DNA of 64,000 nucleotides from Candidatus Oxydemutatoraceae bacterium (GCA_965218975.1 OZ244717.1:338347-402346), one strand, 5' to 3'. Counted from the first letter of the stretch, positions 10,244-41,144 are shown. Notes: generated by a model not told the origin, from the sequence alone. A program made the numbers and translations.

Positions 10244-10247
10244 GACA

Positions 10248-10538
10248 TTGGAAGAACATCTTTATGTCATTGCTTATGACATTTCCGATCAAGCAAGGGG
10301 GCGCCTGATATTCAAACTGCTGCATGGTTATGGGGAATGGTTGCAAATGTCTGTCTTTCAATGCCGGCTATCCCGTCGTCGTCATGCGGAATTGATTGCC
10401 ATGCTGGACGAAATTATCCACCACACGGAAGATCATGTTATGCTGATGGACCTGGGATTAGCGGATTCGGTTAAACCGAAAATTGTAAGTCTAGGCAAAG
10501 GTTTTCAACCGGTGGAAAGGGAACCGATTATTGTCTGA
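10248..10538 (+). CDS. cas2: Cas2
   Basis: LYVIAYDISD....R......L..YGEWLQMSVFQCRL is the Cas2 beta1/ferredoxin-fold signature. The likely TTG start at 10248 lies just after the cas1 stop (10241-10243); the listed ORF starts at 10215. Confidence 0.85.
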   Translation: MEEHLYVIAYDISDQARGRLIFKLLHGYGEWLQMSVFQCRLSRRRHAELIAMLDEIIHHTEDHVMLMDLGLADSVKPKIVSLGKGFQPVEREPIIV

Positions 10539-10749
10539 TGTTCTTCCGTTCTTCATAACTCCCGCGAGAGCCTAGGTGATGAACGTTTGTCCGGGCAGTG
10601 CTCGCATAAAAATGTTCTTTGACAATCAGTATCTTACAGGTGACATCTTGCAAAAAAAATACAAGAAACACGACAGTGTTATGATGCATTTAGACCTCTC
10701 GAAATGGCTTTCTATAATCTTTGCCAAACAATAGGTTATGGGATGTGCT
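10539..10749 (+). promoter_or_regulatory. CRISPR leader with a candidate promoter (TTAGAC 10690-10695, 17 nt spacer, TATAAT 10713-10718)
   Basis: An AT-rich 211 bp non-coding stretch lies between cas2 and the first repeat. A perfect -10 hexamer sits 32 bp upstream of repeat 1, with a weak -35 at 17 bp spacing. Confidence 0.5.
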
Positions 10750-13700: not shown

Positions 13701-15981
13701 CCCGCGTATTCCGTAGCTATATGCTACGGCCTCATTGAAGCTCTACGGTGATCTGACCGAGCACTTCCAACTCAGCGTATTCCGTAGCTATATGCTACGG
13801 CCTCATTGAAGCTACGCAGCGGTACGGCGTCTCGGAGCCGCACACTTGGGTATTCCGTAGCTATATGCTACGGCCTCATTGAAGCGAGGCAGCTTTGTCC
13901 ATTTGCTGGAGCCGCACGCGGTATTCCGTAGCTATATGCTACGGCCTCATTGAAGCCGGTGTAAAATCATCCATCAAAATAACGGTCTTGCTGTATTCCG
14001 TAGCTATATGCTACGGCCTCATTGAAGCTCATTGACTCGGGATATGGACGTCCTCGATTCTTTAGTATTCCGTAGCTATATGCTACGGCCTCATTGAAGC
14101 TATGCAAAAGATACCGAAGAATACAATAATTTGAAGTATTCCGTAGCTATATGCTACGGCCTCATTGAAGCTTTGAAGATCAATATGTATTCAATCGTTA
14201 AGTTGGGGTATTCCGTAGCTATATGCTACGGCCTCATTGAAGCACATTGGATAGTGCTGCGATTGAGCCTTTTATGAGAGGTATTCCGTAGCTATATGCT
14301 ACGGCCTCATTGAAGCCCATTCTCCAAAGCTGCCGCGAGAAACCCGTTCCCGCGTATTCCGTAGCTATATGCTACGGCCTCATTGAAGCCTCACTGCCTT
14401 CGTTTCCTTCCAGCATAATTACAGCGTATTCCGTAGCTATATGCTACGGCCTCATTGAAGCTATATTTTTTTTCTACATCTTCCATGTTTTATCTCCGTA
14501 TTCCGTAGCTATATGCTACGGCCTCATTGAAGCGCGGATGATAATTTGTGCAATTCCCTCATTTGCCTTAAGTATTCCGTAGCTATATGCTACGGCCTCA
14601 TTGAAGCCCGGAAGTTAAAGTCCCCATGTCCGCAGTTAAAGCGGAGTATTCCGTAGCTATATGCTACGGCCTCATTGAAGCGGCTCGGCAATTTCAGTCA
14701 TCAAATCTTTATAACTCGTATTCCGTAGCTATATGCTACGGCCTCATTGAAGCATGATGGTGTTTTAGCACCGTCATGAATGATGTTAAGTATTCCGTAG
14801 CTATATGCTACGGCCTCATTGAAGCTTGTTGCAGTATTTATTTTTATCTCGCTTGTCATGTTGTATTCCGTAGCTATATGCTACGGCCTCATTGAAGCTG
14901 GTAAGCACATTCGACTCAACCATGGCTTTCCTCACGTATTCCGTAGCTATATGCTACGGCCTCATTGAAGCTGTGTGGCGGAATGTCCCTTTTGGGTATA
15001 GTTTATCCGTATTCCGTAGCTATATGCTACGGCCTCATTGAAGCAGCGAAGAAGCCGATGAGGCAGGCGTATATATAGTGTATTCCGTAGCTATATGCTA
15101 CGGCCTCATTGAAGCGACCGCTGTAACTACGACCTGTCACATTACATAATGTATTCCGTAGCTATATGCTACGGCCTCATTGAAGCGGTGCTTTACTCAC
15201 GCATTCAAGGAATCCGGCGCATGTATTCCGTAGCTATATGCTACGGCCTCATTGAAGCAAATCTCCGTTGTTGTGGTGCCGGCAAGAGCGCCGGGTATTC
15301 CGTAGCTATATGCTACGGCCTCATTGAAGCAACCTTTGCATCTGGGGATAAAAAACAGTACTGGAATGTATTCCGTAGCTATATGCTACGGCCTTATTGA
15401 AGCATTGCAAATCATCCATATACGGATAAGGAAACAAAGTATTCCGTAGCTATATGCTACGGCCTCATTGAAGCTTTGGCTTCTATTGTTCTGCGCGGTT
15501 CGGGTACGCATGTATTCCGTAGCTATATGCTACGGCCTCATTGAAGCCCAACTATTTGGTCAACACCTATCAACCCAGAAATAAGTATTCCGTAGCTATA
15601 TGCTACGGCCTCATTGAAGCGACTCAACGCTAATGACGCATACGGCAAAGCCGGATGTATTCCGTAGCTATATGCTACGGCCTCATTGAAGCGGCGTTGG
15701 GTAAATCTCAGCTAGTGCGTAAAGTGCACGTATTCCGTAGCTATATGCTACGGCCTCATTGAAGCGATTTTCTAAGTCAGGAAGCTCCAACCCGCAACAT
15801 AGGTATTCCGTAGCTATATGCTACGGCCTCATTGAAGCAAGCCGCTGTTATATCGAGTGGTCAAGGAGTGAGTGGTATTCCGTAGCTATATGCTACGGCC
15901 TCATTGAAGCTTTTCGTTATTGGGACGCAAGTCATTCCAGGAGACGTATTCCGTAGCTATATGCTACGGCCTCATTGAAGC
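10750..15981 (+). CRISPR. CRISPR array: 73 copies of the 36 bp repeat GTATTCCGTAGCTATATGCTACGGCCTCATTGAAGC and 72 spacers of 35-38 bp
   Basis: I located every repeat start by hand: first at 10750, last at 15946, with periods of 71-74 bp. The repeat has an internal hairpin, CCGTAGC-TATAT-GCTACGG, and ends in ATTGAAGC. One variant repeat at 15368-15403 has C>T at 15395. The leader and cas2 lie at the 5' side. Confidence 0.97.
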
Positions 15982-16010
15982 GCGATTAAATGTTTTTCGT
16001 AAATTTATGC

Positions 16011-16901
16011 TCAACGTTCACCACTGAATAAAGCCTCTTGAATGTCGCCTTGAATACAATTCTTCACGCCATTCGCATTTCTTTGTTTTGTATTTTTAAC
16101 AGGTTTCCTAAGTGGTTGCCCATTATGTTCAAGATACCCAAGAACTCTCCGCAAGCCAATTTCAACATGCTTTTGTGATCTTTCAATACCGATGCTTTTT
16201 CTACCTAATGTTCGTGCAACTGCATTAGTAGTAAATGCTCCTGCAAACGGGTCAAGAATTATATCTTCTTTATTTGAACTTGCTTGAACAATTCTTTGAA
16301 GAAGCGTTTCAGGTTTTTGGGATGGATGATCTTCATATTCATCCATCTTGTAACGTACTCGAGGAAAATACCAAACATTTCCTGGAACTTTTTTCGTATT
16401 ATAAATCGTTGGAATCTTTTTTCTGTAGTCAATAAGTTTACGTTTAGCCCCCGTTTTAGCTTCTATAGCAATTGTGTCAGCGTTAAAAGTGTAATTATCA
16501 AGATCTTTCACACAGAAAAGAATCGGTTCATACATGGAACCATAATATTTTTTCGCTTGCACCCCCGAACTATCATATGACCAAATAATTCTGCTAAGTA
16601 TGTTTATTCTCTTTCTCAATATAATATCTATGTAGGGCATAGCTTGGGTGCTTGTCATCACATACATAGAGCCTTGAGATGAAAGTTTATCAATACAAAG
16701 AGTTAACCATTTCTCACACCATTCAGCATACGCTTCATCAGAAGGCCATTTGTCATCAAATCCATCAAAGCGTTTCCCAATGTTGTAAGGGGGATCAGCA
16801 AATATCAAATCAATTGAATTATTAGCAATTTTATCGCGTAATACTTCTATTGCATCGCCTTGGTAAATGGCATGATTTTTTATTTCGTATTTTTTAATCA
16901 T
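16011..16901 (-). CDS. DNA methyltransferase, beta-class N6-adenine/N4-cytosine type (DPPY)
   Basis: Motif IV, IFADPPYNIG, lies near the N-terminus. Motif I, LDPFAGAFTTNAVA, lies near the C-terminus, giving the beta-class order. The start is 4 nt downstream of the IS1595 transposase stop. Confidence 0.8.
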   Translation of the reverse strand: MIKKYEIKNHAIYQGDAIEVLRDKIANNSIDLIFADPPYNIGKRFDGFDDKWPSDEAYAEWCEKWLTLCIDKLSSQGSMYVMTSTQAMPYIDIILRKRINILSRIIWSYDSSGVQAKKYYGSMYEPILFCVKDLDNYTFNADTIAIEAKTGAKRKLIDYRKKIPTIYNTKKVPGNVWYFPRVRYKMDEYEDHPSQKPETLLQRIVQASSNKEDIILDPFAGAFTTNAVARTLGRKSIGIERSQKHVEIGLRRVLGYLEHNGQPLRKPVKNTKQRNANGVKNCIQGDIQEALFSGER

Positions 16902-16905
16902 TAAA

Positions 16906-17826
16906 TCAAGCTACCAATTGTTCATAAGTAATCGTCTTCCCAACCATGGCCTTAAAGAGATCATCAAGTCTGTCCTGTGTATCACGTTTCACATTGCCTT
17001 CATTAAGTCTGAATGTAAACTCATTTACATATTGTTGACAATGCTTCTTGCTCCAATTGTGGTAAACACCATTGAAGCCACGTTTAATCACTGACCATAC
17101 AGATTCAACTCCATTAGTATGCGCCATCCCGTTAACATATTCTCTTGCTGAATGTTTTACGCTTTCATGCTGATAATAGTCGCCTCCAATATCTTTATAA
17201 CCCTTGTGGTCATCCGTATAAATGGTGGTACCCACTTCAATGTTAGCAAGAACAGCACTATGAATAGTAGCCTTGTCTTCACCTTCAACTGGCATAGCTT
17301 TTACACGGCCTTCCCGTTCTCTCATACCCAGCACAGCCTGCTTTCCCACAGTACCGCGTCCGGCCTTGAGTTTCTTATGAGAGTGTTTATTCTTTTCAGC
17401 CCTACCAATATAGGTGGCGTCCATTTCCACTTCACCACTCAAGGCTTCAAGATTGTTGCCGCAAGCTAAACGTAGCCTATGCAGCATGTACCAGGCTGTC
17501 GGATAGCTAACGTCCAGTTCCTTGCTTAATTGCATGGCGGAAATACCTTTACGGGCGGTCATAAGCAGATACGCTGCAAATAGCCACATACGGGCATCAC
17601 GCACCCTGTTATGTTCAAGTGGGGTTTCTGTGAAAGCATTGAAATATCCGCGACAATCGCCGCACCAATAACCTTTCTTGTAGTTCTTTTGCTTGGTGAT
17701 TCTGCCGGTACAGCCGCATTTGACACATACAGGCTTAGTTCCCCATCTAAGCTGCTCAAGCTTCGGCAAAAATGTTTTCAAGGGCAATTTCATAATTGGA
17801 CTCTTTTGGCGATAGACCCCGTTCAA
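16906..17826 (-). mobile_element. IS1595-family transposase gene (intact)
   Basis: The N-terminal zinc ribbon is CVKCGC....WCGDCRGYF. The ISXO2-like DDE core is TIYTDDHKGYKDI...HESVKHSAREYVNGMAHTNGVESVWSVIKRG..GVYHNWSKKHCQQYVNEF.FR. The probable start is MKLPLKTF at 17793. I could not define terminal inverted repeats confidently. Confidence 0.8.
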
Positions 17827-18193
17827 TTGATTTATTGCGGGTCACGCCCCGTGCCTTTAGGCAGGCAACTTTTAGGAGCCACTCATCAACATCCGGAATC
17901 CATTGTTCCTTTGTATCCGAAGGCAGCAGAAAAAGTCTTTGCTTCCCACCTTCGAGAAAGGGACTTTGTAAATTGTCACGTATATTTTTTAAAAGTATAT
18001 CGCTTGCTACAGAATCATCATAAATTTTATGGCACCAATTCCAAATCGGACCAAGTTTATCGGCCTTATCAACCACTTCCCCTGTTTCATCAAGGAGGAT
18101 ACTAACAGGAATTAGCTTCTTGTCGAACGCCTTCTTAGGATCAACAAGAGATTTACCGATTTTGGAATTTCGGTAACGTAATTCTTCCTTCAT
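17756..18193 (-). CDS. Hypothetical protein (145 aa); its 3' end runs into the IS1595 upstream region and is possibly IS-truncated
   Basis: The ORF lies on the same strand as the upstream operon, 105 nt after the 300 aa gene. No recognisable motifs were seen. The last ~13-25 codons overlap the transposase start region. Confidence 0.4.
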   Translation of the reverse strand: MKEELRYRNSKIGKSLVDPKKAFDKKLIPVSILLDETGEVVDKADKLGPIWNWCHKIYDDSVASDILLKNIRDNLQSPFLEGGKQRLFLLPSDTKEQWIPDVDEWLLKVACLKARGVTRNKSIERGLSPKESNYEIALENIFAEA

Positions 18194-18298
18194 CTACCAA
18201 TTTAATCCAATCATGAATTGAGCGTTCTTTATAGATTGTTTCCATAGTCTGTTGTCCTCCTTATCGGAAATACAACCTCTGCATCGACAATTGCAGCT

Positions 18299-19201
18299 TC
18301 AATTCTTTCCATCTTCAGCGGCTTTGACTGCATCAACAACGTCATCAGCAAGTCGACGAAGTTCAACATATTCAAGCACTGCTAGTTCTCGAGAACCGCC
18401 GATAAAGCAAATCTCCCGGCATACATCTAGCACTTTGCCGGCAGGCGGCAGTTTGCCGCTACTTTCATTGTCGTCGGGAAGAAATCTTGTGAGACTCGCC
18501 GCCACGGCTTCTTGGACCGAAGCTATTCCAAAAACGGGATTCCTGGATACCATTGCAGATACAAACCATTCCCAGTGGGCTTTTGTTTGCCGAAGTATTT
18601 TTCCTATCCGGTCTTTCGCTATCCCGGATTGTATCTCGGCTCGCCGAACTAGCCGCTCCCGCCACCAAGCTCTCGCAAACGGACAATCAACAAGAACACT
18701 TTTGTTCCCCCGAACATGAGGCAATCCACCCAGTTGGCGTAGAACCGAACGCACGCAGTTGTCCGTTTGCTCTTTTCTTTTAGGGTTCTCGTTGGCCATT
18801 ATCCTGTCAATACGCTCTGCGCCTGTTTGTGATGCGATCCCATTACTTGCGAGGAAACTCGGTTCGATTCGACCTTCCCGAACGTGGCACATAGTGACAT
18901 GAGTCCAAAATAATGTGCTTGAGGCAATCGACAAAGAAAGGTTATTCCAGAGATCGTACATCTTGGATTCAGTGCTAGCTGGGGGATCCTTGAATTGCGC
19001 CTCGCTCATCTTGACCTGATACAGATCGGGATCAATCAAACCAGAAACCGGAATCTGCTCCATAGTTTTGATGAATGCTTCCCCGTCTCTGATCTCTTGA
19101 AGAAATGCCTCTTGTTTTTCGCTACCTTTCTCGCTAAGCAAATTCGCCCGGAATTTGGCCCACTCTTTGTCGTCAAGACATTTCCAATCAAGTTCACTCA
19201 T
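18299..19201 (-). CDS. Hypothetical protein (300 aa), operon partner of the sulfur-modification module
   Basis: An 8 nt overlap with the upstream gene indicates translational coupling. I cannot assign a family. The conserved-looking core is FWTHVTMCHVREGRI ... RQLGGLPHVRGNKSVLVDCPFARAWW. Confidence 0.6.
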   Translation of the reverse strand: MSELDWKCLDDKEWAKFRANLLSEKGSEKQEAFLQEIRDGEAFIKTMEQIPVSGLIDPDLYQVKMSEAQFKDPPASTESKMYDLWNNLSLSIASSTLFWTHVTMCHVREGRIEPSFLASNGIASQTGAERIDRIMANENPKRKEQTDNCVRSVLRQLGGLPHVRGNKSVLVDCPFARAWWRERLVRRAEIQSGIAKDRIGKILRQTKAHWEWFVSAMVSRNPVFGIASVQEAVAASLTRFLPDDNESSGKLPPAGKVLDVCREICFIGGSRELAVLEYVELRRLADDVVDAVKAAEDGKN

Positions 19202-20087
19202 CTTCGTGCCTCAATGGTGGGGGTACATCATGCGGATAAAGCAGCGTTGCAGCCTCCTCAGGTCTGAAATCCGGATCTTCCCAATTACAATTAGTGCAGC
19301 CTTTCGTTTCCAGATCATTGGCAAGCGATTCTAGAGCTTTGTAACTGCACCATCCTTCTTCACTATCTCCGTCGGAATCCTTGTATTTCCGTTGCAGTGC
19401 AGAAAAGCACGAAGTCACGACATGAGTCATAATGTCCTTGCGTTTATCCGAATAGTGCCCTTTGTCTTGAAGAAAAGTATAAAGAGCTGGACCACAATGT
19501 ACTACGAAGCGGAACGTGTCTCCATCAACAGCCTCTGTATAAAATTGGCCTTGCTTTAAGCTTTCGTCCGACCAAATAGAAATGAGTCCTTGAAGACCTG
19601 ATGCCCCAAGATTAAATACCGGCCCCTGCGCAAGCCAAGCACCCTTCGGAAATATTACTTCCAAACCATTCCAGTCGGGATGTACATCATCCTTTTCAGA
19701 ATCCAGAGTACAGAATATTTCCCGGATGCATACAATTACTGGAGTGAAGTACGGAGGCTCACCAAAGTTTGTGTTATTCCAAGCAATTTCCTGGGTCGGA
19801 TCTTGAGAACACTGAAGTTCCCGATACGCCGAGCGAGGCGCGGCCAAAGAACAAGCATACCGGGCATGTTTTTGCGCAATCAGTCGCTCGACCAGACGGG
19901 CACCCGTCACCGAATGCGTTAGCAAGAAGCGGCTTTTGTCGGAACTAAACCTATGTTGAACCTGACTATGTTGAACCTGATAATTGCCATTCGGGAAGGC
20001 ATCATTGCCTTCCTCAATTGCCGGATAATTACGCGCCAGAATCGCGTTCGCCCCGGGGGCGCTCTTGGCGTTGATGTCGGTATTCAT
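19194..20087 (-). CDS. Hypothetical protein (297 aa), operon partner of the sulfur-modification module
   Basis: There is a 4 nt start/stop overlap with the GHKL ATPase gene. No recognisable catalytic motif was seen. Confidence 0.6.
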   Translation of the reverse strand: MNTDINAKSAPGANAILARNYPAIEEGNDAFPNGNYQVQHSQVQHRFSSDKSRFLLTHSVTGARLVERLIAQKHARYACSLAAPRSAYRELQCSQDPTQEIAWNNTNFGEPPYFTPVIVCIREIFCTLDSEKDDVHPDWNGLEVIFPKGAWLAQGPVFNLGASGLQGLISIWSDESLKQGQFYTEAVDGDTFRFVVHCGPALYTFLQDKGHYSDKRKDIMTHVVTSCFSALQRKYKDSDGDSEEGWCSYKALESLANDLETKGCTNCNWEDPDFRPEEAATLLYPHDVPPPLRHEDE

Positions 20088-22051
20088 TCTGAAGTGCTTA
20101 TGGTGGGCTTAGTATCATCGGAGGGTCTCTTGCCAATCTCCACTCGGAGACTTGCTCCGGATTGGATAGGGACACCATCGGCTGCCAGTTTATATTCGGC
20201 CTCTACTTCGGTCGTAGTATTCTTTCCAAGATTGCCCAGCAAAATAGCAGGATAGGGTTTGGTAATTATTCTATCCGGCTGAATCGTTTTTCCATTGACC
20301 TTCGCCGCGGTGATTGCGGCAACACGATCAGTCCATATACGCTCAGTCGTTACATCCGAATGATCATCAACAACGAGACGGAGTTCCAGATCTTCACAAG
20401 GCTCAATGCAATGGATCCGGATTTTCCGGCGATTTGAAGCCGATGGAGTAACAACGATCTTAAAATATTGCGGCAAGGTCGGCCTTTCCCGAGAGCCGCT
20501 CCGGCTACTTTGCCGTCTTTTCCCGGTATTCTTGCTTCGGCCCTTGTTCCTGCCACCTGTCGTTCCCCCGGGCCCTGTTTCATGTGGTCGCCGTGAGGAT
20601 ATCCGTCTCTTAATCAGCGCGATTGTGCCCTGATATTCCCGACCGGCTTTTTTTCCTTGTCGGCTTCCGGCGGTGCTATCAGGGAAGACCAAGAAGTCGT
20701 CAGGGCTATACTCGTCAGAAGTAAGTTTTGGTATTACCTCTTCGATTTTCTTTTTAATCACATTAAATGCCTGACGTAGCTGCTTCCAGTCCTCGTTGCT
20801 GATAGCCTTCTTATCAAGCCGATTGTGTAGAGGCCCCTCAGCTTTTCCAATAAGATCGTGGAACCGGCGGGGCGCGCTCTTTGCGGAAACCAGAACCAAA
20901 CCTTCAAAGGCCTCATAGTCTGCAAAGTTAAAACCGGGAATGTTGCCGGTAATCCACATACCGTTCCTGCAAAGATTTACTCGCGTTCGCCCTGAAGGCG
21001 CCGGATGCTGAACGAAAAGTCTTACCGAGCCATCCAGGACCTCAACTTCATGGCGATAACCTCCTCGGTAGGCTTGATAGGCAAAAAATGCCTGTTCGCC
21101 CGGGAGATAGTCCTTTTTCCGTTTTTGTTCCCGATATTTCTCCAGAACAGTCTGCAACTGCTCACTCGTAAGTTCCCGCTGGGGCTTATTGCCCTCGCCT
21201 TCAATAACCACCTCGAGCTGCCCATCAGCTATTGCGACAAAAAAACTACAGGCAATAGCCTCCGGTACGGTATCAGATAGAAAATCCTTATCCTTACTAC
21301 GAAAACGGTTGAATGCAGGAACGATAACGGCAGTCCCATGTCCGGAATCCTTCTCAATATCCGCCAAAGCGTTTTTAATCAATATCGGAAGGTCATTTCC
21401 CCACGGGTATATGTATTCTCTTTTTTTGCGATCAACCAAGTAATAACCGTTAGCGCTCCGCCCTGTGTCGTCGCTCTGGTTAGCATAATGGGATGCGAGA
21501 ATTGCGTGGCCGCTTGCAATCCGTTTCCCGTTGCAAATACCACCGTAGAGTACATACCTGAGATCTGAGGCGGGAAATAACGAAAAATGCCCAACGCCGA
21601 AGGTACCGGACGCTCCACTTTCCTTGCGACTTCTGCCGTCCGACAATAATGCCGTCATTCTGTCTTTGTCGAGGCCAATACCATTGTCCGAAACAATAAG
21701 TGCCTGCTGCCAATCTTGTGATAGCGCTTCAGAGATTCTGTCAGCCACAATTTGCTCCTGATCATTGAGCGAACCGTTGTTTTCCTCCTCACGCCTTTTC
21801 ACTGCTTTCTTAAAAGCGGATTTATAACTCTCAATTCCAGGTATATCTTCGGTTTTTACCTCCGTAGTAGAAAAACGTACTATAGCCCTAGCCTCACGAA
21901 CCCCAGTGTAATGGAGGGCGGCGGCGGCATCCAGAGAATTTTGGATCAGCTCGCGCACAATTGCGAACGAACTCATCTCTCGGAAGCTGCTAATGCTAGC
22001 AGCCGTAAATCCGTAAGAGTCACTCGATTTGAAAAAATAAAGATCTGTCAT
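20084..22051 (-). CDS. GHKL-superfamily (sacsin/Hsp90-like, HATPase_c_3-type) ATPase with a basic low-complexity linker
   Basis: Bergerat-fold motifs are present: N-box FAIVRELIQNSLDA, G1 box VSDNGIGL and G2 box GASGTFGVGHFS. The C-terminal third contains an R/K/S/G-rich stretch (RNKGRSKNTGKRRQSSRSGSRER). A 4 nt overlap with the desulfurase gene stop indicates coupling. Confidence 0.75.
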   Translation of the reverse strand: MTDLYFFKSSDSYGFTAASISSFREMSSFAIVRELIQNSLDAAAALHYTGVREARAIVRFSTTEVKTEDIPGIESYKSAFKKAVKRREEENNGSLNDQEQIVADRISEALSQDWQQALIVSDNGIGLDKDRMTALLSDGRSRKESGASGTFGVGHFSLFPASDLRYVLYGGICNGKRIASGHAILASHYANQSDDTGRSANGYYLVDRKKREYIYPWGNDLPILIKNALADIEKDSGHGTAVIVPAFNRFRSKDKDFLSDTVPEAIACSFFVAIADGQLEVVIEGEGNKPQRELTSEQLQTVLEKYREQKRKKDYLPGEQAFFAYQAYRGGYRHEVEVLDGSVRLFVQHPAPSGRTRVNLCRNGMWITGNIPGFNFADYEAFEGLVLVSAKSAPRRFHDLIGKAEGPLHNRLDKKAISNEDWKQLRQAFNVIKKKIEEVIPKLTSDEYSPDDFLVFPDSTAGSRQGKKAGREYQGTIALIKRRISSRRPHETGPGGTTGGRNKGRSKNTGKRRQSSRSGSRERPTLPQYFKIVVTPSASNRRKIRIHCIEPCEDLELRLVVDDHSDVTTERIWTDRVAAITAAKVNGKTIQPDRIITKPYPAILLGNLGKNTTTEVEAEYKLAADGVPIQSGASLRVEIGKRPSDDTKPTISTSE

Positions 22052-23202
22052 GCTACTGCTACTCCTTCACCAAACTGCCGTTCAAACGCAAGAGCGGCAA
22101 GCATAATATCCTCCTCTGTGGTAAACCGGCCTAGGCTAATACGGACCGCCTGAAGCGCCGACAAAGGCGGTTGTCCGAGGGCCGTTAAAACATGAGACGG
22201 TTCAACCCCTCGTGACGAACAGGCAGAACCCGTTGAAATCGCCACGCTCCCTTCAAGCCCGGCAATTACTTCATCTCCGGATATCCCCGGAAACGACACA
22301 TTTAAACTTCCCGGTACACGTTGATATTTGTGCCCGTTCAGTTGAAGCCCTGGCGCGCTTTTCTGCAGTAACTGCCATAGCCGGGAAGTCAGTTTCCTGA
22401 TACGTAACGAATCCTTTTCTGTCTCATTCAACGCAATTTCACATGCCGCACCAAAGCCAACAACGAGATGTACGGGCAAGGTGCCGGGACGTAAGCCGCG
22501 CTCCTGACCACCTCCTGTAGCAACCGGCCCGATGCGATCAAAAGTATCGTTGTGGACATAGAGGACCCCAATCCCCATCGGGCCATATACTTTGTGCGAG
22601 GATAACGACAACAGGTCGATTCCAAGCGAATCGACATCAATTCCTATTTTTCCGGCGGCTTGGGTTGCATCCGTATGCATTAACGCACCATGCTCATGGG
22701 CAATCGACGCAATCTCGGCAACCGGATGAACAACTCCAATTTCGTTATTAACCAGCATAGCGGATACTATCGCAGTCTTATCGCTGATCGCATCTTGCAT
22801 TTCGTCCATATCCATAATGCCGTCCGGATTCACCCCGATCTTGCGGATAGGAACTCCATCCAAACCCAATGCTCGAACTGTTTCCAAAACTGCCGGGTGC
22901 TCGGTAGCTACAGTAATAATCTCGTTACGGCCAGTGCTTCTCTTGATCGTGCCTCGAAGCGCAATGTTGCAGGATTCCGTTGCGCCGGAAGCAAAAATAA
23001 TTTCTTGGTCGTCTGCGCCTAACAGGGCAGCTACCTGAGCACGACCTTCAGCTACGGCCCGCGCCGCATTCCATCCATAGGCATGATGGATTGCATGGGG
23101 ATTCCCAAAACGCTCTTGCAGAAAAGGCTGCATGGCATCTCGAACCCGGGGGTCAAGCGGAGTGGTGGCCTGGTAGTCCAGATACACCGGTGCAGAAGCC
23201 AT
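22048..23202 (-). CDS. Cysteine desulfurase (NifS/IscS/DndA class, PLP-dependent)
   Basis: VYLDYQATTPLDPRV is at the N-terminus. The PLP-lysine motif is SSHKVYGPMGIGVLYV and the active-site cysteine loop is STGSACSS. The probable start is the ATG at 23202 (MASAPVYLDY), 4 nt after the upstream stop; the listed ORF extends to 23274. Confidence 0.9.
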   Translation of the reverse strand: MASAPVYLDYQATTPLDPRVRDAMQPFLQERFGNPHAIHHAYGWNAARAVAEGRAQVAALLGADDQEIIFASGATESCNIALRGTIKRSTGRNEIITVATEHPAVLETVRALGLDGVPIRKIGVNPDGIMDMDEMQDAISDKTAIVSAMLVNNEIGVVHPVAEIASIAHEHGALMHTDATQAAGKIGIDVDSLGIDLLSLSSHKVYGPMGIGVLYVHNDTFDRIGPVATGGGQERGLRPGTLPVHLVVGFGAACEIALNETEKDSLRIRKLTSRLWQLLQKSAPGLQLNGHKYQRVPGSLNVSFPGISGDEVIAGLEGSVAISTGSACSSRGVEPSHVLTALGQPPLSALQAVRISLGRFTTEEDIMLAALAFERQFGEGVAVA

Positions 23203-23206
23203 ATGT

Positions 23207-24568
23207 TTAGTCAGTGCAATCACATGGCAACATGGCCTTGGTTTCAGTGAGCGCTTGGACTCCGCGGTCCGCAATGTTTCGGTAAGTCATCTTGCTGTTC
23301 GTTCCAAAGAAACCGACTGTACCGTCAATGCCTCGTTGTTCTGCTGTCAAATCCCGAGTGTAGGTATCCTCTATACGAGCCCACCAAGCGACATCCATCG
23401 GTGTGTTCTGCTGACTGTTAGGTAAATCTGCCTCGCATTCCGAATGAATACTCTCATAAACCTTAGTCAGGTTTGATGTTCCCTTGAGAAAACAGTAAAC
23501 ACAATTGGACAGATGCCCGGTCGCGGGGAGTTTCAATTCAAAATCCTTGTTTTTCCGCCAGAATGCCTTAACGTCTTCTTTTTTTACACACATGTCTGAA
23601 AGCGGCATATAGACATGTTCTCCTTCATACTCCCGAACCTCAGAACTGCCCGAGATTCTCGCTTCGACACGTTGCACACGTGCCTCTTCATCTCCCCTCA
23701 ACCCGATAAAAGCGACATATTGCACTCCACCCTCGCCAAATACAGCATTCCCCCCATACGCTTTCCCATCCAAGAGCTTACTGTCCATGGCGTCTGATGC
23801 TGTCGAAAAATCCTTATAACGTTGCTCCGGACGACATACCGGCTGTGACATCACAAATTTCTTCTTGGCCAGAAAAATATCTCTTGGGACCCCGCCATTA
23901 TTGCGACGGTGGCGTTGATAAAGCGTTTCCTCATCAACCTGGGGCTTATTCTCCCAATGGCCAAGACGAGGAATGATTTTTTTGCAGGCCAGCCAGTCGC
24001 GCAGAAACATTCGTGTTGTCTCAAGTTTCAGAGTTGCTGTGCAGGTCCGGCGGAACTGGTTGGGAACATACCCTGACCACGACAACATCTCCTCAAAGAC
24101 CTCGCCCCTCCAGCAGTAACCATCCGGGTTATTTTCCGAACGAGGCTTGGCATTCACTAGCCGATAGGAAGGCAAACGAGTCCAGTCGCCGTTGCGCACA
24201 TCTTCATAGGTTTGATACTCGATCAGAAAAAATGGAATTCCGTAGCAAGATTCTGCTCGTTTCTTGCATTGGGCTACAAAGTCATAGGTGGCCGGATGTT
24301 CGGCAGCAGTATTGTTAAAGAGTATGACATCACCGCGCTCGGCCTTTAGTACACGGTTTTCCAGCAGAGTAAACAAAAGCATTCCGCTGGATCGACCGCC
24401 GGAGAATTTGACAACGTGAGGAAAATTCTCGTGCCTTTTAGACCGATATCGAAACTGATACTCGAACTCCGGATCGTATTTTTTTGGTTTGCGAAGGCGT
24501 TTCGAAACTACTAGCTTGGGAATTCCTTTTACAGAATGTTTAACAAGATTTTCTACAACGGTCTGCAT
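23207..24568 (-). CDS. PAPS-reductase-fold PP-loop ATP pyrophosphatase (DndC/SspD-like class)
   Basis: The PP-loop is VVKFSGGRSSGMLLF, followed by LFNNTAAEHPATYDF, the CysH/PAPS_reduct pattern SGGxxS...NT..E.P.T..F. C-terminal cysteines are NCVYCFLKG and a terminal LPCDCTD. The gene sits directly upstream of a cysteine desulfurase. Confidence 0.75.
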   Translation of the reverse strand: MQTVVENLVKHSVKGIPKLVVSKRLRKPKKYDPEFEYQFRYRSKRHENFPHVVKFSGGRSSGMLLFTLLENRVLKAERGDVILFNNTAAEHPATYDFVAQCKKRAESCYGIPFFLIEYQTYEDVRNGDWTRLPSYRLVNAKPRSENNPDGYCWRGEVFEEMLSWSGYVPNQFRRTCTATLKLETTRMFLRDWLACKKIIPRLGHWENKPQVDEETLYQRHRRNNGGVPRDIFLAKKKFVMSQPVCRPEQRYKDFSTASDAMDSKLLDGKAYGGNAVFGEGGVQYVAFIGLRGDEEARVQRVEARISGSSEVREYEGEHVYMPLSDMCVKKEDVKAFWRKNKDFELKLPATGHLSNCVYCFLKGTSNLTKVYESIHSECEADLPNSQQNTPMDVAWWARIEDTYTRDLTAEQRGIDGTVGFFGTNSKMTYRNIADRGVQALTETKAMLPCDCTD

Positions 24569-24623
24569 TACGGCCTGCCTCCAAAAATCCGGGAATTATT
24601 AAGATTCGTTGACAAGGACTGAC

Positions 24624-24968
24624 TTATTCAACCTCTTCCATGATTGGTTTTCCCTTGCGACCTACCCGCATTCTAAACTTTCTTTGCAAGTCTTTCTTGA
24701 AAACATAGGTTCGATTAAGAGGGTAAAACTCGTTCATCATCGAAAGTTTAGACATGACAAAAGAGTCTTTATCGTAATTTTCATCAAAATCGCAACCCCA
24801 TCCAAAGCAAACAAACGGCGTCAGAGCCTCATGGTTCATCGCTGCCCTGATGCCTATCAGATTCTTGCCAAGTCGTTCTATAGCGTTTCCTTGTGCCTGT
24901 TTTTTCTTTCCTTCCTGTTCACGTTCCCTATTCGTTCCCTGTTTCTTTATTTCTGAAACAACAATCAA
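24624..24968 (-). CDS. Hypothetical small protein (up to 114 aa)
   Basis: The ORF is on the operon strand between the NPPF methyltransferase and the PP-loop gene. It has a lysine/glutamate-rich N-terminus and no motif. An equally long ORF exists on the opposite strand, so coding status is uncertain. Confidence 0.3.
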   Translation of the reverse strand: MIVVSEIKKQGTNREREQEGKKKQAQGNAIERLGKNLIGIRAAMNHEALTPFVCFGWGCDFDENYDKDSFVMSKLSMMNEFYPLNRTYVFKKDLQRKFRMRVGRKGKPIMEEVE

Positions 24969-25031
24969 TTTGCGGTAGTTGGCATCATTTTCCTTTCTCA
25001 GCCAGATTACCCCGCCATCGGGTATTATTGT

Positions 25032-25781
25032 TCAATCAGTAAACACCAAATCAAACTCATGTCTCTGGCCGGCCCCTTTGATTATAGATGGCTTTGTCGC
25101 TCCGTTTGGAGTCTTTATTCTTGACCTTGTGTTGCGCCGTGTTTTGGCGCAGATCCTCTGCTCTAGCCACTGTAGAAATAATGCCCCTTTTAGCCCATGA
25201 ATATTGAAAATCAAAACTTCACTATGGAATAGAACATCGTTGTATATGTCTTTCGGCAAGGCCACTATAGACGTGATTTCAGGGTAGGTTCCATCTACAA
25301 AACGCATCCAACGCTTGCTATTCAGAGTCTGGTTAAGACGTAACCCATAAGGCGCAAACAAAACAATCGGGATGTTTTTACCAAATAACTCTATCGTTTT
25401 ACGCAACCAGACTTCAAGTAAAAGCGGACGTCTGCCGAATGTTTCCGATACCAACTGTTTTGTTTTTTCTTCAATATTAAAAGGCGGGTTCGCAATGACA
25501 AGTGCGGGTTTTTCCACTTCACCTCTTGAAAGGGAAATAAAATCCCTGACAATCGTGTCGGGAAATCCTTGATCCTCTATGTCAACCCCTTTTGTTTTGA
25601 ACCCCGCTTGCTTAAAAGGGATAAGAAGCGAACCCTTACCTACACACGGGTCAAATACGATTCTGTCGGATTTGATTTTCTTATGAACAATACTAAACAG
25701 GAATTGGCTTAATTCCGGCGGGGTGTAGACTGTGGAGTTCTTTTGCTCCTTGTAAAAGTCGTTGCGGTCAACGCGATACAT
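25032..25781 (-). CDS. N6-adenine DNA methyltransferase, gamma-class (NPPF), compact form
   Basis: Motif I is VFDPCVGKGSLL. About 55 aa later comes motif IV, VIANPPFN. The ATG abuts the stop of the decayed IS1595 transposase (TGAATG). Confidence 0.7.
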   Translation of the reverse strand: MYRVDRNDFYKEQKNSTVYTPPELSQFLFSIVHKKIKSDRIVFDPCVGKGSLLIPFKQAGFKTKGVDIEDQGFPDTIVRDFISLSRGEVEKPALVIANPPFNIEEKTKQLVSETFGRRPLLLEVWLRKTIELFGKNIPIVLFAPYGLRLNQTLNSKRWMRFVDGTYPEITSIVALPKDIYNDVLFHSEVLIFNIHGLKGALFLQWLEQRICAKTRRNTRSRIKTPNGATKPSIIKGAGQRHEFDLVFTD

Positions 25782-26275
25782 TCATGCTACCAGTTTCTCA
25801 AACGTTACGGTCTTCCCAACCATGGCCTTAAACAGGTCATCCGGTTTGTCTTGTGTATCACGAGCAACATTGTCTTCATTCAGGCGAAAGGTGAACTCGT
25901 TGACGTACTGCCGGCAATGCTTCTTGCTCCAATTGTGGTAAACACCATTGAAGCTGCGTTTGATGAGCAACCATACAGACTCGACCCCGTTTGGTATGAG
26001 CCGTCCCGTTCACATACTCTCTGGCCGAATGGTTGACCTTTGCCTTTATACCCCCTGTAATCATCGGTGTAAGGAGTAGAGCCAAGCTCAATGTGCTCGC
26101 GGAATGGCATTGCTGGTCGTTTCATGGTCCTCGGCCCGTATCGGCATGGCCTTTATATGGCCGCCACGCTCCTGCATCCCCAGCACGGCCCGTTCGTCTA
26201 CCGATCCTCGTCCAGCTTTCAGCTTCTTGTCCATGTGCTTGTTCTTTCATTTACGGGCATCCATGAGCTTGTTGT
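25782..26275 (-). pseudogene. IS1595-family transposase remnant (5'-truncated, multiple frameshifts)
   Basis: Pieces in three frames match the C-terminal ~160 aa of the transposase at 16906-17826. Examples are KKLKAGRGS..AVLGM, PYTDDYRGYKG, HSAREYVNG and SFNGVYHNWSKKHCRQYVNEFTFRLNEDNV....DDLFKAMVGKT.T.E.LVA. The DNA is clearly diverged from the intact copy. Confidence 0.8.
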
Positions 26276-26560
26276 GCTCAAAAAGACTTAGCGTTTTAGC
26301 GTGTTTTCTAGACATCTTTCTTGTTCCTACAGAATATGAATTAATGCCTTTGAAGCCCCGCAACTTTGAAGAATATGGGCTAGTGATTATACACGCTTCG
26401 CTTCTGCTCTCCCGCTTCTCTCCTTACCTTTCTGCACAGGAGGCATGTCAACAGATGAGCCAACGACATGCCCTTCAAACTACCTCAATCGGTCGCAAGG
26501 CAGTGCCTTATTGGTCGTTCCCCCGTTCGCGGGTGCATAAGCTCAGAAACATTTGAAACC

Positions 26561-27040
26561 GTTTTGTGTTTGGTGGCAGATTGTCGGCGGATTGTGCCGG
26601 ATTATTGGTGGATTGTTGGTAGGTTGTGCCGGATTATTAGCAAAGTGCATGTCGTCCATGACGCGACTGGGTTCTGTCAACAAGCCCCAGCCCCGACATC
26701 CTTGTCGGGTCGTTCGCCGCTGAAAACCGTTCGGTTTTCCGGGCGCGGCTTACCCATGACGCGACTGGGTTCTGTCAACAAGCCCCAGCCCCGACATCCT
26801 TGTCGGGTCGTTCGCCGCTGAAAACCGATCGGTTTTCCGGGCGCGGCTTACCCATGACGAGACTGGGTTCTGTCAACAAGCCCCAGCCCCGACATCCCTG
26901 TCGGGTCGTTCGCCGCTGAAAACCGTTCGGTTTTCCGGGCGCGTCTCACCCGACAACGGACAGAAAGCACCGATCCGAATGTTGCTGCCGAATGCTTCCC
27001 CGGAAGCCCTTCAAGAATCCCATTTAGGGTGGCATCGTAC
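26561..27040 (+). repeat. Mosaic intergenic repeat cluster, copy 1: G/T-rich head, three ~97 bp units, conserved tail
   Basis: The head (26561-26657) has GGATTGT/GGATTAT motifs every 9-12 bp. Units start at 26658, 26755 and 26853. Each contains the hairpins CCCGACA-TCCT-TGTCGGG and GAAAACCG-TT-CGGTTTTC. The tail AAAGCACCGATCCGAATGTT...CCCATTTAGGGTGGCATCGTAC runs 26964-27040. Confidence 0.9.
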
Positions 27041-27487: not shown

Positions 27488-27851
27488 TCGTTCGCCGCTG
27501 AAAACCGTTCGGTTTTCCGGGCGCGGCTCACCTGTTTTGTGTTTGGTGGTAGATTGTCGGCGGATTGTGCCGGGTTGTTGGTGGATTGTTGGTAGGTTGT
27601 GCCGGATTATTAGCAAAGTGCATGTCGTCCATGACGAGACTTCGTGCTGTTAATGAACCCCAGCCCCGACATCCTTGTCGGGTCGTTCGCCGCCCGCTAA
27701 AAAAGGTGGCACCGTTCGGTTTTCCGGGGCGCGGCTCACCCATGACGAGACTTGGTTCTGTCAATGAGCCCCAGCCCCGACATCCCTGTCGGGTCGTTCG
27801 CCGCTGAAAACCCCGCTGAAAACCGTTCAGTTTTCCGGGCGCAGCTCACCC
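27488..27851 (+). repeat. Mosaic intergenic repeat cluster, copy 2: partial unit, head, two units, no tail
   Basis: The family and orientation match 26561-27040. The head sequence TGTTTTGTGTTTGGTGGTAGATTGTCGGCGGATTGTGCCGGGTTGTTGG... is followed by CATGACGAGACTT...CCCCGACATCCTTGTCGGG...TTCGGTTTTCCGGG units. Confidence 0.9.
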
Positions 27852-28044
27852 TGCGGCGTCAGGGTGGGCCTTATCCGCACGTAGCGGTCAACCGTATATA
27901 GCGTCAGGCATGCGAGCCGAAATCGGACAGCGCCGGCAACCGATATATCCTCGCATCCCGGTAACATTGCCTGCGCGGACCGCGCAGCTCATTGGGTTAC
28001 AATACCCCGTAGCTAAAAATAAAAAAGGTCTGACTGACAACTAC

Positions 28045-29661
28045 ATGTTTTACCTAGATACGACAACGCCTTTATTTCAAGACAAAGAGAATCAAGACCT
28101 GATTACCATATATCAGGCGAGTGTTTGGATATCAAAGCACCTAAACAAAGAAGTAACCTCCTCCAATATCTCGTATCTAATCCAATACGGAAGGATTGCC
28201 AAATATTCGGAGAACGGGACAACCGCGGTCAGTAAAAACGAGCTGGTCAATTACTATAAAGGCTTTCTTCAGGACCGGGAAAGTGTTTGGAAGAATAAGC
28301 TCGGGGACGACCTAAACTGGAATCTTTCATTCGACTTCCTCAGAGAGAAAGACACAACGAAGCATGTGCATCGATTTCATCCCTACAAGGGGAAGTTTAT
28401 CCCTCAATTAGTTGAGTATTTCTTGGATGGCCACACGGATGAGTTTAAAAAAGAGGCCTTTTTCCAAACCGGGGATATTGTTTTAGACCCGTTCTGCGGC
28501 AGCGGAACAACGCTGGTGCAAGCAAACGAACTCGGAATGCACGCCGTCGGCGTTGACATTTCAGCTTTCAATACTTTGATTGCCAACGTAAAAATAGCGA
28601 AGTATGACCTCAACGAGCTGCGCAACGAACTGAGATGCATAGGCCTTTTACTTCGGCGGAAAACATACGATTCTCCGAATATTGAGTTTGAAAGAGAATT
28701 GTCGGAAGCGTTAAACGTCTTTAATAAAAACAACTTTCCGACACCGGATTTCAAAAGAAAGCTTCGGGTAAAGGAAATAGATGAAAAAACTTATGCCTGC
28801 GAAAAAGAGAAGGAATTTATGCCTGCTTATGACAAATTGGTTAAGAGGCATCGTATTCAAATTAAGCAGACTAAAACCGGCCGTTTTACGGACAAGTGGT
28901 TTTTGAGGCCCGTAAAGGATGAGATAGAGTTGTTGCTCAAACAAATCAGGGAAGTCAAGAATGAGCGCATCAGAAAAATCTTGGAAATCGTTTTAAGCAG
29001 AACCGTTCGGTCGTGCCGAGCTACGACCCATGCCGACCTGGCCACCTTGAAAGAGCCCGTAACAAAACCGTATTACTGCAAAAAACACGGCAAGATTTGC
29101 AAGCCCTTGTTTTCTGTCCGGTCGTGGTGGAAGAGATACGGTGAGGACACTTTAATCAGGATTCAGGCATTTAATACTCTGCGCACTGAAACCAAACAAA
29201 TCTGCCTGCAGGGAGATTCGAGAACAATAAACTTGATTGATCGCCTGCCGGGGAAAGAGAAGCGCCTTGCGGGACTTATAAAAAGCAAAGGAATAAACGG
29301 CATATTTACCAGTCCTCCTTATGTCGGACTGATTGACTACCACGAACAGCACGCCTACGCATACGACCTATTTGGCTACAAAAGAAACGACCGGCTTGAA
29401 ATAGGCCCCCTGTCCGAAGGGCAAGGCGCTATAGCAAGACAAACTTACTCGGAGTCAATTGCCGAAGTGCTACGAAATTGCAGAAAATACCTTGCGAAGG
29501 ACTTTAATGTTTTTCTTGTCGCGAATGATAAATACAACTTGTATCCATCAATCGCCAAACTTGCCGATATGCGCATAGCGAATACGTATAAGCGACCGGT
29601 TCTTAACCGAACGGAAAGGGATAAAGGGGCTTATTCGGAGATGATATTTCACTTGAAATAA
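28045..29661 (+). CDS. DNA methyltransferase, N4-cytosine/N6-adenine type (SPPY), alpha-class motif order
   Basis: Motif I, LDPFCGSGTTLVQA, lies ~270 aa upstream of motif IV, FTSPPYVGLIDY. The probable start is the ATG at 28045 (MFYLDTTTPLF); the listed ORF starts at 27910 in GC-rich repeat-flanking sequence. The gene is AT-rich. Confidence 0.8.
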   Translation: MFYLDTTTPLFQDKENQDLITIYQASVWISKHLNKEVTSSNISYLIQYGRIAKYSENGTTAVSKNELVNYYKGFLQDRESVWKNKLGDDLNWNLSFDFLREKDTTKHVHRFHPYKGKFIPQLVEYFLDGHTDEFKKEAFFQTGDIVLDPFCGSGTTLVQANELGMHAVGVDISAFNTLIANVKIAKYDLNELRNELRCIGLLLRRKTYDSPNIEFERELSEALNVFNKNNFPTPDFKRKLRVKEIDEKTYACEKEKEFMPAYDKLVKRHRIQIKQTKTGRFTDKWFLRPVKDEIELLLKQIREVKNERIRKILEIVLSRTVRSCRATTHADLATLKEPVTKPYYCKKHGKICKPLFSVRSWWKRYGEDTLIRIQAFNTLRTETKQICLQGDSRTINLIDRLPGKEKRLAGLIKSKGINGIFTSPPYVGLIDYHEQHAYAYDLFGYKRNDRLEIGPLSEGQGAIARQTYSESIAEVLRNCRKYLAKDFNVFLVANDKYNLYPSIAKLADMRIANTYKRPVLNRTERDKGAYSEMIFHLK

Positions 29662-29669
29662 AAAACAGA

Positions 29670-30455
29670 ATGGCACTTGATGAACGACAAATAACAGGAA
29701 TCGGGGGCACTATAAGGGAAAGCCTAAGGAATAAGCTCAGCAATTATAAACCCGAGACAAACCACATGCCCTTTCACTACAGATTGATCGGTAAAGACAG
29801 AATGGCGTTGTTTTCTTTTATTCACTCTCTGAATACAACCTTCGGAACTTCTATCTTTGAACCTGCGGCAGAAGCTTTGGCGAAACCGAACTTCCGGTCC
29901 GTAAACAAACAATACGAAGTCGGCAATAAAATCAGCAAACGGTCCCAGTCCGAAATTCAGAGCATTATCAATGATCTTACAACCGGAAAAGACCCGGATA
30001 AAAAAGCAGAGAGCGAAAGAATAAGAAAAGTATGTAACAGCGGCAGTATGGAAGAACTACAAACTGTAAAAGTAGATTTATACGCTCAAAGTTTTGACGG
30101 AGTAGTCCATTTGTTCAACCTGAAACCCGCCAAACCGAACATTAGCGACTTCAAAGACTTTAAAAGAACCCTGTTAGAGTGGACTGCAATTTTTCTGGCC
30201 AACAATCCACAAGCAAGAGTAAATTCATATATTGCCATCCCCTACAATCCTTATGAACCGAAACCTTACGAGAGATGGACCTTAAAAGGAATGCTAGACT
30301 TGGAAAATGAACTGAAGGTTGCGGAAGAGTTCTGGGATTTTTTAGGCAGCGAAGGCACTTACGAGGACTTGCTCGGATGCTTTGAAAAAGTGGGAGTCGG
30401 AATGAAGGAAGAGATAAGCGATTATTTCCAGAGATTTAATCAGGTTTTAATATGA
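29670..30455 (+). CDS. Probable type II restriction endonuclease partner (TdeIII-like by recollection)
   Basis: A 261 aa ORF starts 9 nt after the methyltransferase stop and has the same AT-rich composition. It has an acidic/lysine pattern (VKVDLY...FNLKPAKPN). The family call rests on memory of TdeIII-family annotations and was not verified. Confidence 0.5.
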   Translation: MALDERQITGIGGTIRESLRNKLSNYKPETNHMPFHYRLIGKDRMALFSFIHSLNTTFGTSIFEPAAEALAKPNFRSVNKQYEVGNKISKRSQSEIQSIINDLTTGKDPDKKAESERIRKVCNSGSMEELQTVKVDLYAQSFDGVVHLFNLKPAKPNISDFKDFKRTLLEWTAIFLANNPQARVNSYIAIPYNPYEPKPYERWTLKGMLDLENELKVAEEFWDFLGSEGTYEDLLGCFEKVGVGMKEEISDYFQRFNQVLI

Positions 30456-41006: not shown

Positions 41007-41070
41007 ATTGAACAAGTGAAAACAGGATTTATTAGTTTAAGGTAATTGCTTAATTTTTTATATATTTTGC

Positions 41071-41144
41071 ACGATGCCACCCTAAATGGGATTCTTGAAT
41101 AGCTTCGGGGGAAGCGTTCGGCAGAAAGCACCGATCCGAATGTT
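41071..41144 (+). repeat. Solo fragment of the mosaic-repeat tail: the arm is inverted relative to loci 26964-27040 and 52470-52546, and the core is in the same orientation
   Basis: ACGATGCCACCCTAAATGGGATTCTTGAA..GCTTCGGGGGAAGCGTTCGGCAG is the reverse complement of the tail arm. It is followed by the shared core AAAGCACCGATCCGAATGTT. Confidence 0.85.

Follow-up and report, generated by a model that had tools for sequence, protein, structure and literature searches.

The stretch of DNA analysed here (64,000 nucleotides (nt) from Candidatus Oxydemutatoraceae bacterium, GCA_965218975.1 OZ244717.1:338347-402346; hereafter the window) carries, on either side of a cluster of sulfur-related genes and next to a large CRISPR array, two genes for IS1595-family transposases, each directly followed by a gene for a different DNA methyltransferase. 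With a probability of about 0.8, these two pairs are, judging from their sequences, independent and decayed insertions of one clade of cargo-carrying IS1595 insertion sequences (IS), from which two orphan methyltransferases survive, and do not form a composite transposon. Both IS copies appear to be immobile and both methyltransferases apparently complete. A previous interpretation made from the window alone (the sequence-only reading) had proposed that the methyltransferases are IS cargo, which is borne out directly for one copy (copy 2) and, for the other (copy 1), through its architecture and a precedent, and also that the two pairs, both correctly placed on the minus strand, delimit a composite IS-bounded module, which the data presented below do not sustain. 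IS carrying restriction-modification (R-M) genes as passengers are of a kind already known, and the window copies are decayed members of it.

A terminal repeat beyond methyltransferase 2

The direct evidence comes from copy 2 (Table 1). Its transposase pseudogene is real and diverged at the DNA level, as initially proposed: it is 79% identical to copy 1 over 260 nt, with the similarity beginning exactly at both stop codons. At least two frameshifts, with in-frame stops, agree with its first description as a frameshifted and 5'-truncated gene, but the truncation itself does not stand, since the start codon (an ATG at about 26315) and the first 13 codons are retained, reading MSRKHAKTLSLFE, after which the sequence jumps to MDA..KNKH (family residue ~135). 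What is missing is internal (codons ~14-134, ~120 codons) and includes the zinc-ribbon region. The transposase stop and the start of methyltransferase 2 are contiguous, with 0 nt between them, in the TGAATG junction already noticed in the sequence-only reading along with the gamma-class NPPF motif of the enzyme. Residues 1 to ~205 of methyltransferase 2 cover the full length of its ~210-230-amino acid (aa) homologues, and a tail of ~45 residues is unmatched.

Beyond methyltransferase 2, the consensus of the terminal inverted repeats (IRs) of the clade, GGGAAYTATNNNGATTNGTTKACA, finds its single match in the 64 kb of the window, with 0 mismatches where 0.02 matches are expected even allowing 3 mismatches. 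Its orientation is that of a right end belonging to an element on the minus strand; it matches the IRs of the related loci L007 and L032 and the right ends of L001, L004, and L005 (numbered loci are described below), and the ~100 nt on its inner side can be aligned with the corresponding ends of L001, L002, and L017. Between it and methyltransferase 2 lie the tail of a small open reading frame (ORF) characteristic of the closer part of the clade and a fragment of an EcoRI-like endonuclease (PADLOC REase_II, 1.5e-5), fused in frame into a 114-aa ORF. Because the right IR is located beyond methyltransferase 2, the nuclease fragment, and the small-ORF tail, methyltransferase 2 lies inside the IS element. 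Copy 2 thereby shows the hallmark of a transporter IS, namely genes unrelated to transposition between the IRs, here methyltransferase 2 and the nuclease fragment inside the right IR. With its nuclease reduced to ~60 codons, methyltransferase 2 does not constitute a Type II R-M system and is an orphan. As the right IR of copy 2 is the sole IR in the window, both copies are remnants and not complete IS. One other IR candidate, at 26446-26473 (GTTGACA), was rejected owing to its wrong spacing and background score.

Mobile relatives carrying restriction-modification cargo

A scan of species-representative genomes yielded 31 related loci, mostly from sponge-associated metagenome-assembled genomes (MAGs), to which L032 and L033 were added via closer homologues (transposase identity of 86% and 83%, respectively). 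The elements of this clade span 1.6-4.4 kb, end in IRs of the form GGGAAyTAT…GATTnGTTkACA, and generate 8-bp target duplications, found in at least 10 relatives. L007 and L008 are 3182-bp, 100% identical copies at two sites of one genome, with 36-40-nt IRs and the duplications CTCGTTTT and AAAAAAAG, and L012-L015 are four copies in one Amylibacter-labelled MAG, each with a separate duplication. Clean pairs of IRs and 8-bp duplications were also found in L018, L019, L021, L024, L025, and L032 (duplication AAAATTTG). In these relatives, the IRs and duplications enclose the transposase together with the methyltransferase, with or without a nuclease. The tight transposase-methyltransferase arrangement is enclosed by IRs in more than 12 mobile relatives, and in most relatives the cargo begins right at the transposase stop codon or overlapping it. 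In the window, an IR separating transposase from methyltransferase was sought and not found.

According to Pfam, the cargo inside the IRs is nearly always a DNA methyltransferase, of Type II, with a nuclease fused to it or encoded next to it. An N6_N4 methyltransferase is fused to HNH (L001, L013, L017, and L027), T5orf172 (L004), or Mrr (L009) domains, or accompanied by a PF09520 nuclease (L032); other elements combine a methyltransferase with a BglII-type nuclease (L005 and L007), a D12 methyltransferase with a SacI-type nuclease (L006), a C5 methyltransferase with HNH (L024) or with a BsuBI/PstI-type nuclease (L033), and an EcoRI methylase with an EcoRI nuclease fragment (L031). Bro-N or KilA-N proteins take this place in a few elements of the clade. 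In the closer part of the clade, an ORF of ~52 aa without Pfam match (MNQxKLDKA…PTKKDLERKFKMxVDRKGKP..EV) is located just inside the right IR (L032, positions 9060-9218; L001, L002, L004-L009, L016, L017, and L033), and it is the last 24 codons of this ORF that remain in copy 2. In L003 and L009 it directly follows the transposase; L003 was considered as an intact IS devoid of cargo and then dropped, no right IR being present past its small ORF. At the left end, the intact relatives have a TTGACA box in or next to the left IR and, after ~17 nt, a -10-like hexamer (TATAAT). The intact layout in these relatives is a left IR, the transposase, a cargo slot at the transposase stop, the ~52-aa ORF, and the right IR.

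This layout bears on the possibility that the two methyltransferases were resident genes and that IS1595 elements landed just upstream of them, by chance or through target preference. An IS inserted upstream should have left its small ORF and right IR between the two genes, where the gaps are of only 4 and 0 nt; in copy 2, the right IR and the small-ORF tail are instead found beyond methyltransferase 2, and the same compact arrangement lies within the IRs of the mobile relatives just mentioned. We therefore regard this explanation as improbable, even if the homologues of methyltransferase 1 are rarely linked to IS and copy 1 has no IR that would place methyltransferase 1 inside the element, both of which speak in its favour.

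Within this clade, a ~2.7-kb IS with a methyltransferase-HNH fusion (L010-L015; positions 5864 to ~8527 in L013) is 99.9% identical between the Amylibacter-labelled MAG with four copies and Candidatus Poriferihabitaceae MAGs, and 96% identical in Halioglobus. The near-identity across MAGs reflects either a very recent transfer across bacterial classes or mis-binned contigs.

Copy 1 and its two probable deletion junctions

Copy 1 contains the IS1595 DDE domain (PF12762, 3.3e-43), reaches 193 bits with the NCBIfam model transpos_IS1595 (NF033547; cut-off 75), and has 5139 homologues at E<=1e-20, of which those bearing a source name are called IS1595 family transposase. The family assignment of the sequence-only reading is thus confirmed, but the gene is not intact as it had been described. 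Alignment with nine close homologues (10 sequences) revealed that the first ~26 family codons (M.K.HAKTISLFEL..YPTE.DAI.YF) are missing, together with the upstream leader and the left IR, the homology beginning with LEQLRWG near position 17760. The zinc ribbon PF12760, which the relatives carry, remains below threshold in copy 1 (21.6 versus 25.4 bits); the CxxC…CxxC motifs are kept. We detected no IR on either side of copy 1, local alignment scores being at background and the IR pattern scan of the window giving no match there. On its upstream side, codon ~27 of the transposase is joined, at about 17755-17765, to a fragment of a GmrSD_N/DUF262 (SspE-like) gene that covers approximately residues 137-187 and 275-324 of the ~605 encoded by the sixth gene of the sulfur cluster.

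On the downstream side, the stop codon of methyltransferase 1 lies exactly 29 nt from the last CRISPR repeat, as originally reported. The leader of the array is located next to cas2, which belongs to a type I-G/I-U cas operon (Cas3, GSU0053, GSU0054, Cas4-Cas1, and Cas2), so the methyltransferase 1 side corresponds to the trailer end, and an insertion had been proposed to have truncated it. No IS end exists in this 29-nt interval (local alignment score at background, no match to the IR pattern) and the copy 1 element lacks everything 3' of methyltransferase 1; consequently, this looks like a deletion junction and not an insertion junction, and truncation of the trailer by an insertion is not supported in the form in which it was stated. 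The terminal repeat beside methyltransferase 1 is perfect. Among the nearest cas1 relatives (84-87%), which are not syntenic and have other flanks and another repeat, a degenerate terminal repeat occurs in one array but not in the other, so that the perfect terminal repeat in the window proves nothing about a loss of repeats. As far as the sequence can tell, there is therefore a deletion junction on each side of copy 1: the upstream one broke the restriction-type gene of the sulfur cluster, and the downstream one stops 29 nt short of the array.

Methyltransferase 1 starts 4 nt past the stop codon of copy 1, a spacing that we verified together with its assignment as a beta-class enzyme, with DPPY preceding an FxGxG-type motif. 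It passes the PRK11524/YhdJ equivalog cut-off (447 versus 292 bits), its relatives in the PDB are the MboIIA, CcrM, and RsrI methylases, and its homologues align up to residue ~295. Its G+C content (35.6%, compared with 48.2% for the window) fits a foreign origin. In 63 of 80 loci with a methyltransferase 1 homologue (from metagenomes), a conserved gene of ~380 aa, presumably the cognate nuclease, directly follows the methyltransferase. No trace of this partner was found within the window and, having no cognate intact endonuclease, methyltransferase 1 does not qualify as part of a Type II R-M system and is also an orphan. In one of the loci (L068), another IS1595 transposase is located directly upstream of the methyltransferase 1-type gene. 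Comparison of positions 15982-18300 with plasmids by blastn matched only methyltransferase genes (67-72%), and the annotated plasmid homologues of the transposase, at most 43% identical and with other cargo (an AAA ATPase, a PIN-domain protein), were of no help for naming the subgroup.

Copy 1 keeps all the invariant columns of the 10-sequence alignment in a frame uninterrupted over 295 aa. This could be expected if the shortened transposase 1 and methyltransferase 1 had been domesticated as a host operon (for example, as a DNA-binding regulator and an epigenetic methyltransferase) transcribed by read-through from the sulfur cluster, an idea with which the shared orientation of, and short gaps between, the genes from 26.3 to 16.0 kb also agree. 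However, a recent deletion would leave the frame open just as well, this is a single instance with no orthologous copies on which selection could be tested, and the promoter and terminator scans of both IS remnants gave counts at or below those of shuffled sequences and were uninformative. We consider domestication very improbable.

Several observations weigh against the two pairs being relics of cargo-carrying insertions. As copy 1 has no IR, the cargo status of methyltransferase 1 rests on analogy (the 4-nt spacing, the architecture of the clade, and L068), and 79 of the 80 loci with methyltransferase 1 homologues (at most 70% identical) have no IS1595 gene nearby. For copy 2, no left IR was found upstream of the transposase (scores at background), nor an 8-bp duplication, the outer 8 bp AAAAATCC being unmatched in 26300-27000 with 1 mismatch allowed. 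The EcoRI-like assignment of the nuclease fragment is weak (Pfam 1.2e-4, 21.7 bits for a cut-off of 22; PDB 1qps/1ckq, E 0.4). The activity of methyltransferases 1 and 2 is a prediction, and assignment to the ISNwi1 subgroup of ISfinder, which the ends and 8-bp duplications resemble, is tentative.

Table 1. Features of the window discussed in the text, those from 26.3 to 16.0 kb in order of transcription.
Feature	Position	Strand	Basis or remark
Transposase copy 2, IS1595-family pseudogene	25782-26315	-	tblastn, 1e-49
Methyltransferase 2, small gamma-class (NPPF)	25032-25781	-	Motif I FDPCVGKG then NPPF, gamma order
114-aa ORF	24624-24968	-	In-frame fusion of the two following features
EcoRI-like endonuclease fragment	24786-24968	-	Aligns with EcoRI residues ~135-173, including GNAIER
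Small-ORF tail, last 24 codons (KKDLQRKFRMRVGRKGKPIMEEVE) of the ~52-aa ORF	24627-24698	-	Alignment with right ends of the clade
Right terminal IR of copy 2, GGGAATTATTAAGATTCGTTGACA, read inwards from outer end	24591-24614	+	Pattern match
Five-gene sulfur cluster (context, not IS cargo)	18299-24568	-	Library profiles; same order in L114-L117
145-aa ORF, fragment of GmrSD_N/DUF262 (SspE-like) gene	17756-18193	-	tblastn of L115 sixth gene against the window
Transposase copy 1, IS1595 family	16906-17826	-	Open ORF; ATG at 17793, giving 295 aa
Methyltransferase 1, full-length beta-class N6-adenine, YhdJ/PRK11524 type	16011-16901	-	PF01555, 2e-54
Junction between last CRISPR repeat (ends 15981) and methyltransferase 1 stop (16011-16013)	15982-16010		29 nt
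CRISPR array	10750-15981		73 repeats, 72 spacers
Type II pair, methyltransferase and TdeIII-type nuclease	27910-30455	+	Nuclease PF09520, 3.7e-87
N6_N4 methyltransferase, 573 aa	50089-51810	+	
ResIII helicase with DUF488 protein	44845-48389		
Dispersed repeat family	26561-26951, 27488-27851, 41068-41127, 51913-52547, 54907-55119		

The sulfur cluster between the two copies

Between 26.3 and 16.0 kb, every gene is on the minus strand and the gaps between genes are short. The genes between the two pairs form a conserved cluster (Table 1) encoding a PP-loop-like protein of 453 aa (SGGRSS motif), a DndA/SspA-type cysteine desulfurase, a 655-aa GHKL-like protein, and two proteins of 297 and 300 aa, respectively. 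Homologous clusters occur in four other genomes (L114, positions 10001-18178; L115, 10001-18129; L116, 9001-15239; and L117, 9001-19134), and in three of the four a sixth gene of ~600 aa, of GmrSD_N/DUF262 (SspE-like) type, follows the cluster, of which the window has only the fragment joined to copy 1.

The presence of two related transposase genes in direct orientation on either side of this cluster is what makes it tempting to see a composite transposon able to mobilise the whole segment from 16.0 to 26.3 kb, sulfur operon included. Nevertheless, the outer ends that it would require are missing, with no IR in the array-side junction nor upstream of 26315; the lone IR, at 24591, is on the inner side, facing the cluster; and the two copies, 79% identical at the DNA level, carry different cargo and each have a defective transposase. 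Furthermore, a deletion has fused copy 1 with part of the sixth gene of this very cluster, and none of the four homologous clusters is flanked by IS1595 elements. The probability of such a composite is close to negligible, and with it goes the inference that the sulfur cluster had been mobilised in this way.

The cluster shares its desulfurase with the Dnd and Ssp phosphorothioation systems (SspA/DndA, 1e-140 with PADLOC), but DndD, DndE, SspB, and SspC had no match in it with PADLOC, Pfam, or NCBIfam, so that it is neither a canonical Dnd nor a canonical Ssp system. The DndC/SspD-like protein gives weak matches (SspD, 4e-7) with no stretch passing, and the ATPase, of ~650 aa, is GHKL-like (PADLOC PDC-M33A). 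Homologues of the 453-aa protein number more than 1280, with neither a name nor a Pfam domain; the AlphaFold model of this protein is poor (predicted local distance difference test, pLDDT, of 54) and Foldseek returned no significant match for it, only weak ones to PP-loop enzymes. Profile searches with four of the cluster proteins against PDB sequences found nothing. The cluster may represent a third kind of sulfur-based DNA modification-restriction system. As a conserved system without a name, it is the more unusual object of the interval and merits a separate study.

Between the right IR of copy 2 and the first start codon of the cluster there are 22 nt (24569-24590), and only the GGAGG ribosome-binding site of the native upstream region, which spans ~180-220 nt in the relatives, has been kept. 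Transcription of the cluster may now proceed by read-through from the copy 2 remnant and may in this way have been re-wired by the insertion.

A possible history of the two insertions

Extrapolating from the mobile relatives, the unit would have transposed as a whole, from IR to IR, with generation of an 8-bp target duplication, and its cargo would be expressed from the IS promoter (TTGACA-17-TATAAT) through translational coupling to the transposase. R-M cargo could help to retain the element by restricting incoming DNA and by post-segregational killing, a putative role that counts among the weaker points of this explanation. Copy 2 would have inserted 22 nt upstream of the sulfur cluster with an EcoRI-like R-M pair as its original cargo; subsequently, the transposase would have decayed and the nuclease been deleted to ~60 codons, leaving methyltransferase 2 and the right IR as survivors. 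In copy 1, a first deletion probably removed the left IR and 26 codons along with the 3' half of the GmrSD/SspE-like gene, and a second one everything from the nuclease through the small ORF to the right IR, with its endpoint 29 nt from the last CRISPR repeat.

R-M modules would be expected to decay nuclease first, because loss of the nuclease is safe whereas loss of the methyltransferase is not. In the window, the modification side looks complete (methyltransferases 1 and 2 and the five sulfur genes), while nothing or only a fragment remains of either nuclease and of the DUF262 gene; this retention of modification genes accompanied by nuclease loss fits such an order of decay. By contrast, the Type II pair located at 27910-30455, which is free of IS, has kept both its methyltransferase and its TdeIII-type nuclease. 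The decayed insertions thus offer an origin for the two solitary methyltransferases found in a defence island beside a large type I-G array.

At the level of the whole clade, it is an even call whether these IS1595 elements represent a dedicated and modular R-M shuttle, in which unrelated methyltransferase and nuclease cassettes are swapped in a fixed slot and moved between distant sponge-associated bacteria, the orphans of the window being its fossils. If they do, part of the abundant R-M genes and transposases of sponge symbionts would come from one vehicle. The multi-copy elements with clean duplications provide a concrete and testable route for the spread of R-M genes among sponge-associated bacteria.

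Comparison with known systems

The category of transporter IS (tIS) was established on the IS1595 family by Siguier, Gagnevin & Chandler 2009, according to PMC11891212 and PMC5704250. Like tIS, the relatives of the window copies, in the size range given above, have an ISXO2-like DDE transposase with an N-terminal zinc ribbon, IRs, 8-bp duplications, and passenger genes within the IRs. Among the known tIS are tISCpe8/MTnSag1 as well as passenger-carrying members of the ISNwi1 and ISPna2 subgroups. The IR tips of the relatives (GGGAAtTAT) resemble the ISNwi1 consensus (ggnnatTAT). The cargo differs from that of the described tIS, consisting of R-M genes instead of lincomycin resistance and mobilisation functions (tISCpe8/MTnSag1) or transcription regulators (ISNha5). 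Two further differences are the fixed cargo slot of this clade, between the transposase stop and the ~52-aa ORF, and the state of both window copies, which are non-mobile relics.

R-M units flanked by imperfect IRs and with an 8-bp target duplication were reported by Furuta, Abe & Kobayashi 2010 (PMC2853133), and one Neisseria unit in that work includes a COG3677 transposase-like gene; where it deals with IS-flanked R-M systems and solitary methyltransferase genes, PMC2853133 cites Siguier 2009. Those units are isolated cases for which the acting transposase was left open, whereas here one transposase clade is associated with many different Type II R-M cassettes, and several of its elements are multi-copy. 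In the literature searched, which was mostly outside subscription journals and ISfinder, we found neither this recurrent clade described, with its small ORF and its slot for cargo, nor any mention of its spread among sponge symbionts. Like YhdJ, the orphan methyltransferase of E. coli, methyltransferase 1 passes the PRK11524 cut-off and has no nuclease partner in its genome; unlike that of YhdJ, its orphan state appears traceable to a decayed IS-borne R-M module.

The CRISPR array and other features of the window

In the CRISPR array, 62 of the 72 spacers are unique and the repeats are all perfect with the exception of one C>T variant at 15368-15403. Nine spacers recur blockwise (for instance, the block 13381-13705 is found again at 14029-14353), which indicates that duplication, and hence repeat-mediated rearrangement, has occurred within the array. 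None of the spacers matches the window or any of the loci that we retrieved.

A family of dispersed repeats of ~98-110 nt, containing the palindrome GAAAACCGTTCGGTTTTC, is present in intergenic regions as tandem triplets and singly, and resembles repetitive extragenic palindromic (REP) elements or miniature inverted-repeat transposable elements (MITE). It was not found in any of the retrieved loci. Besides methyltransferases 1 and 2, the window encodes two other methyltransferases. The 583-aa N6_N4 enzyme of the apparently intact Type II pair is separated by 8 nt from its nuclease and is 37% identical to the cargo methyltransferase of L032; the fourth one, of 573 aa, is also an N6_N4 methyltransferase. 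With the ResIII helicase encoded together with a DUF488 protein (Table 1), the entire window reads as a defence island.

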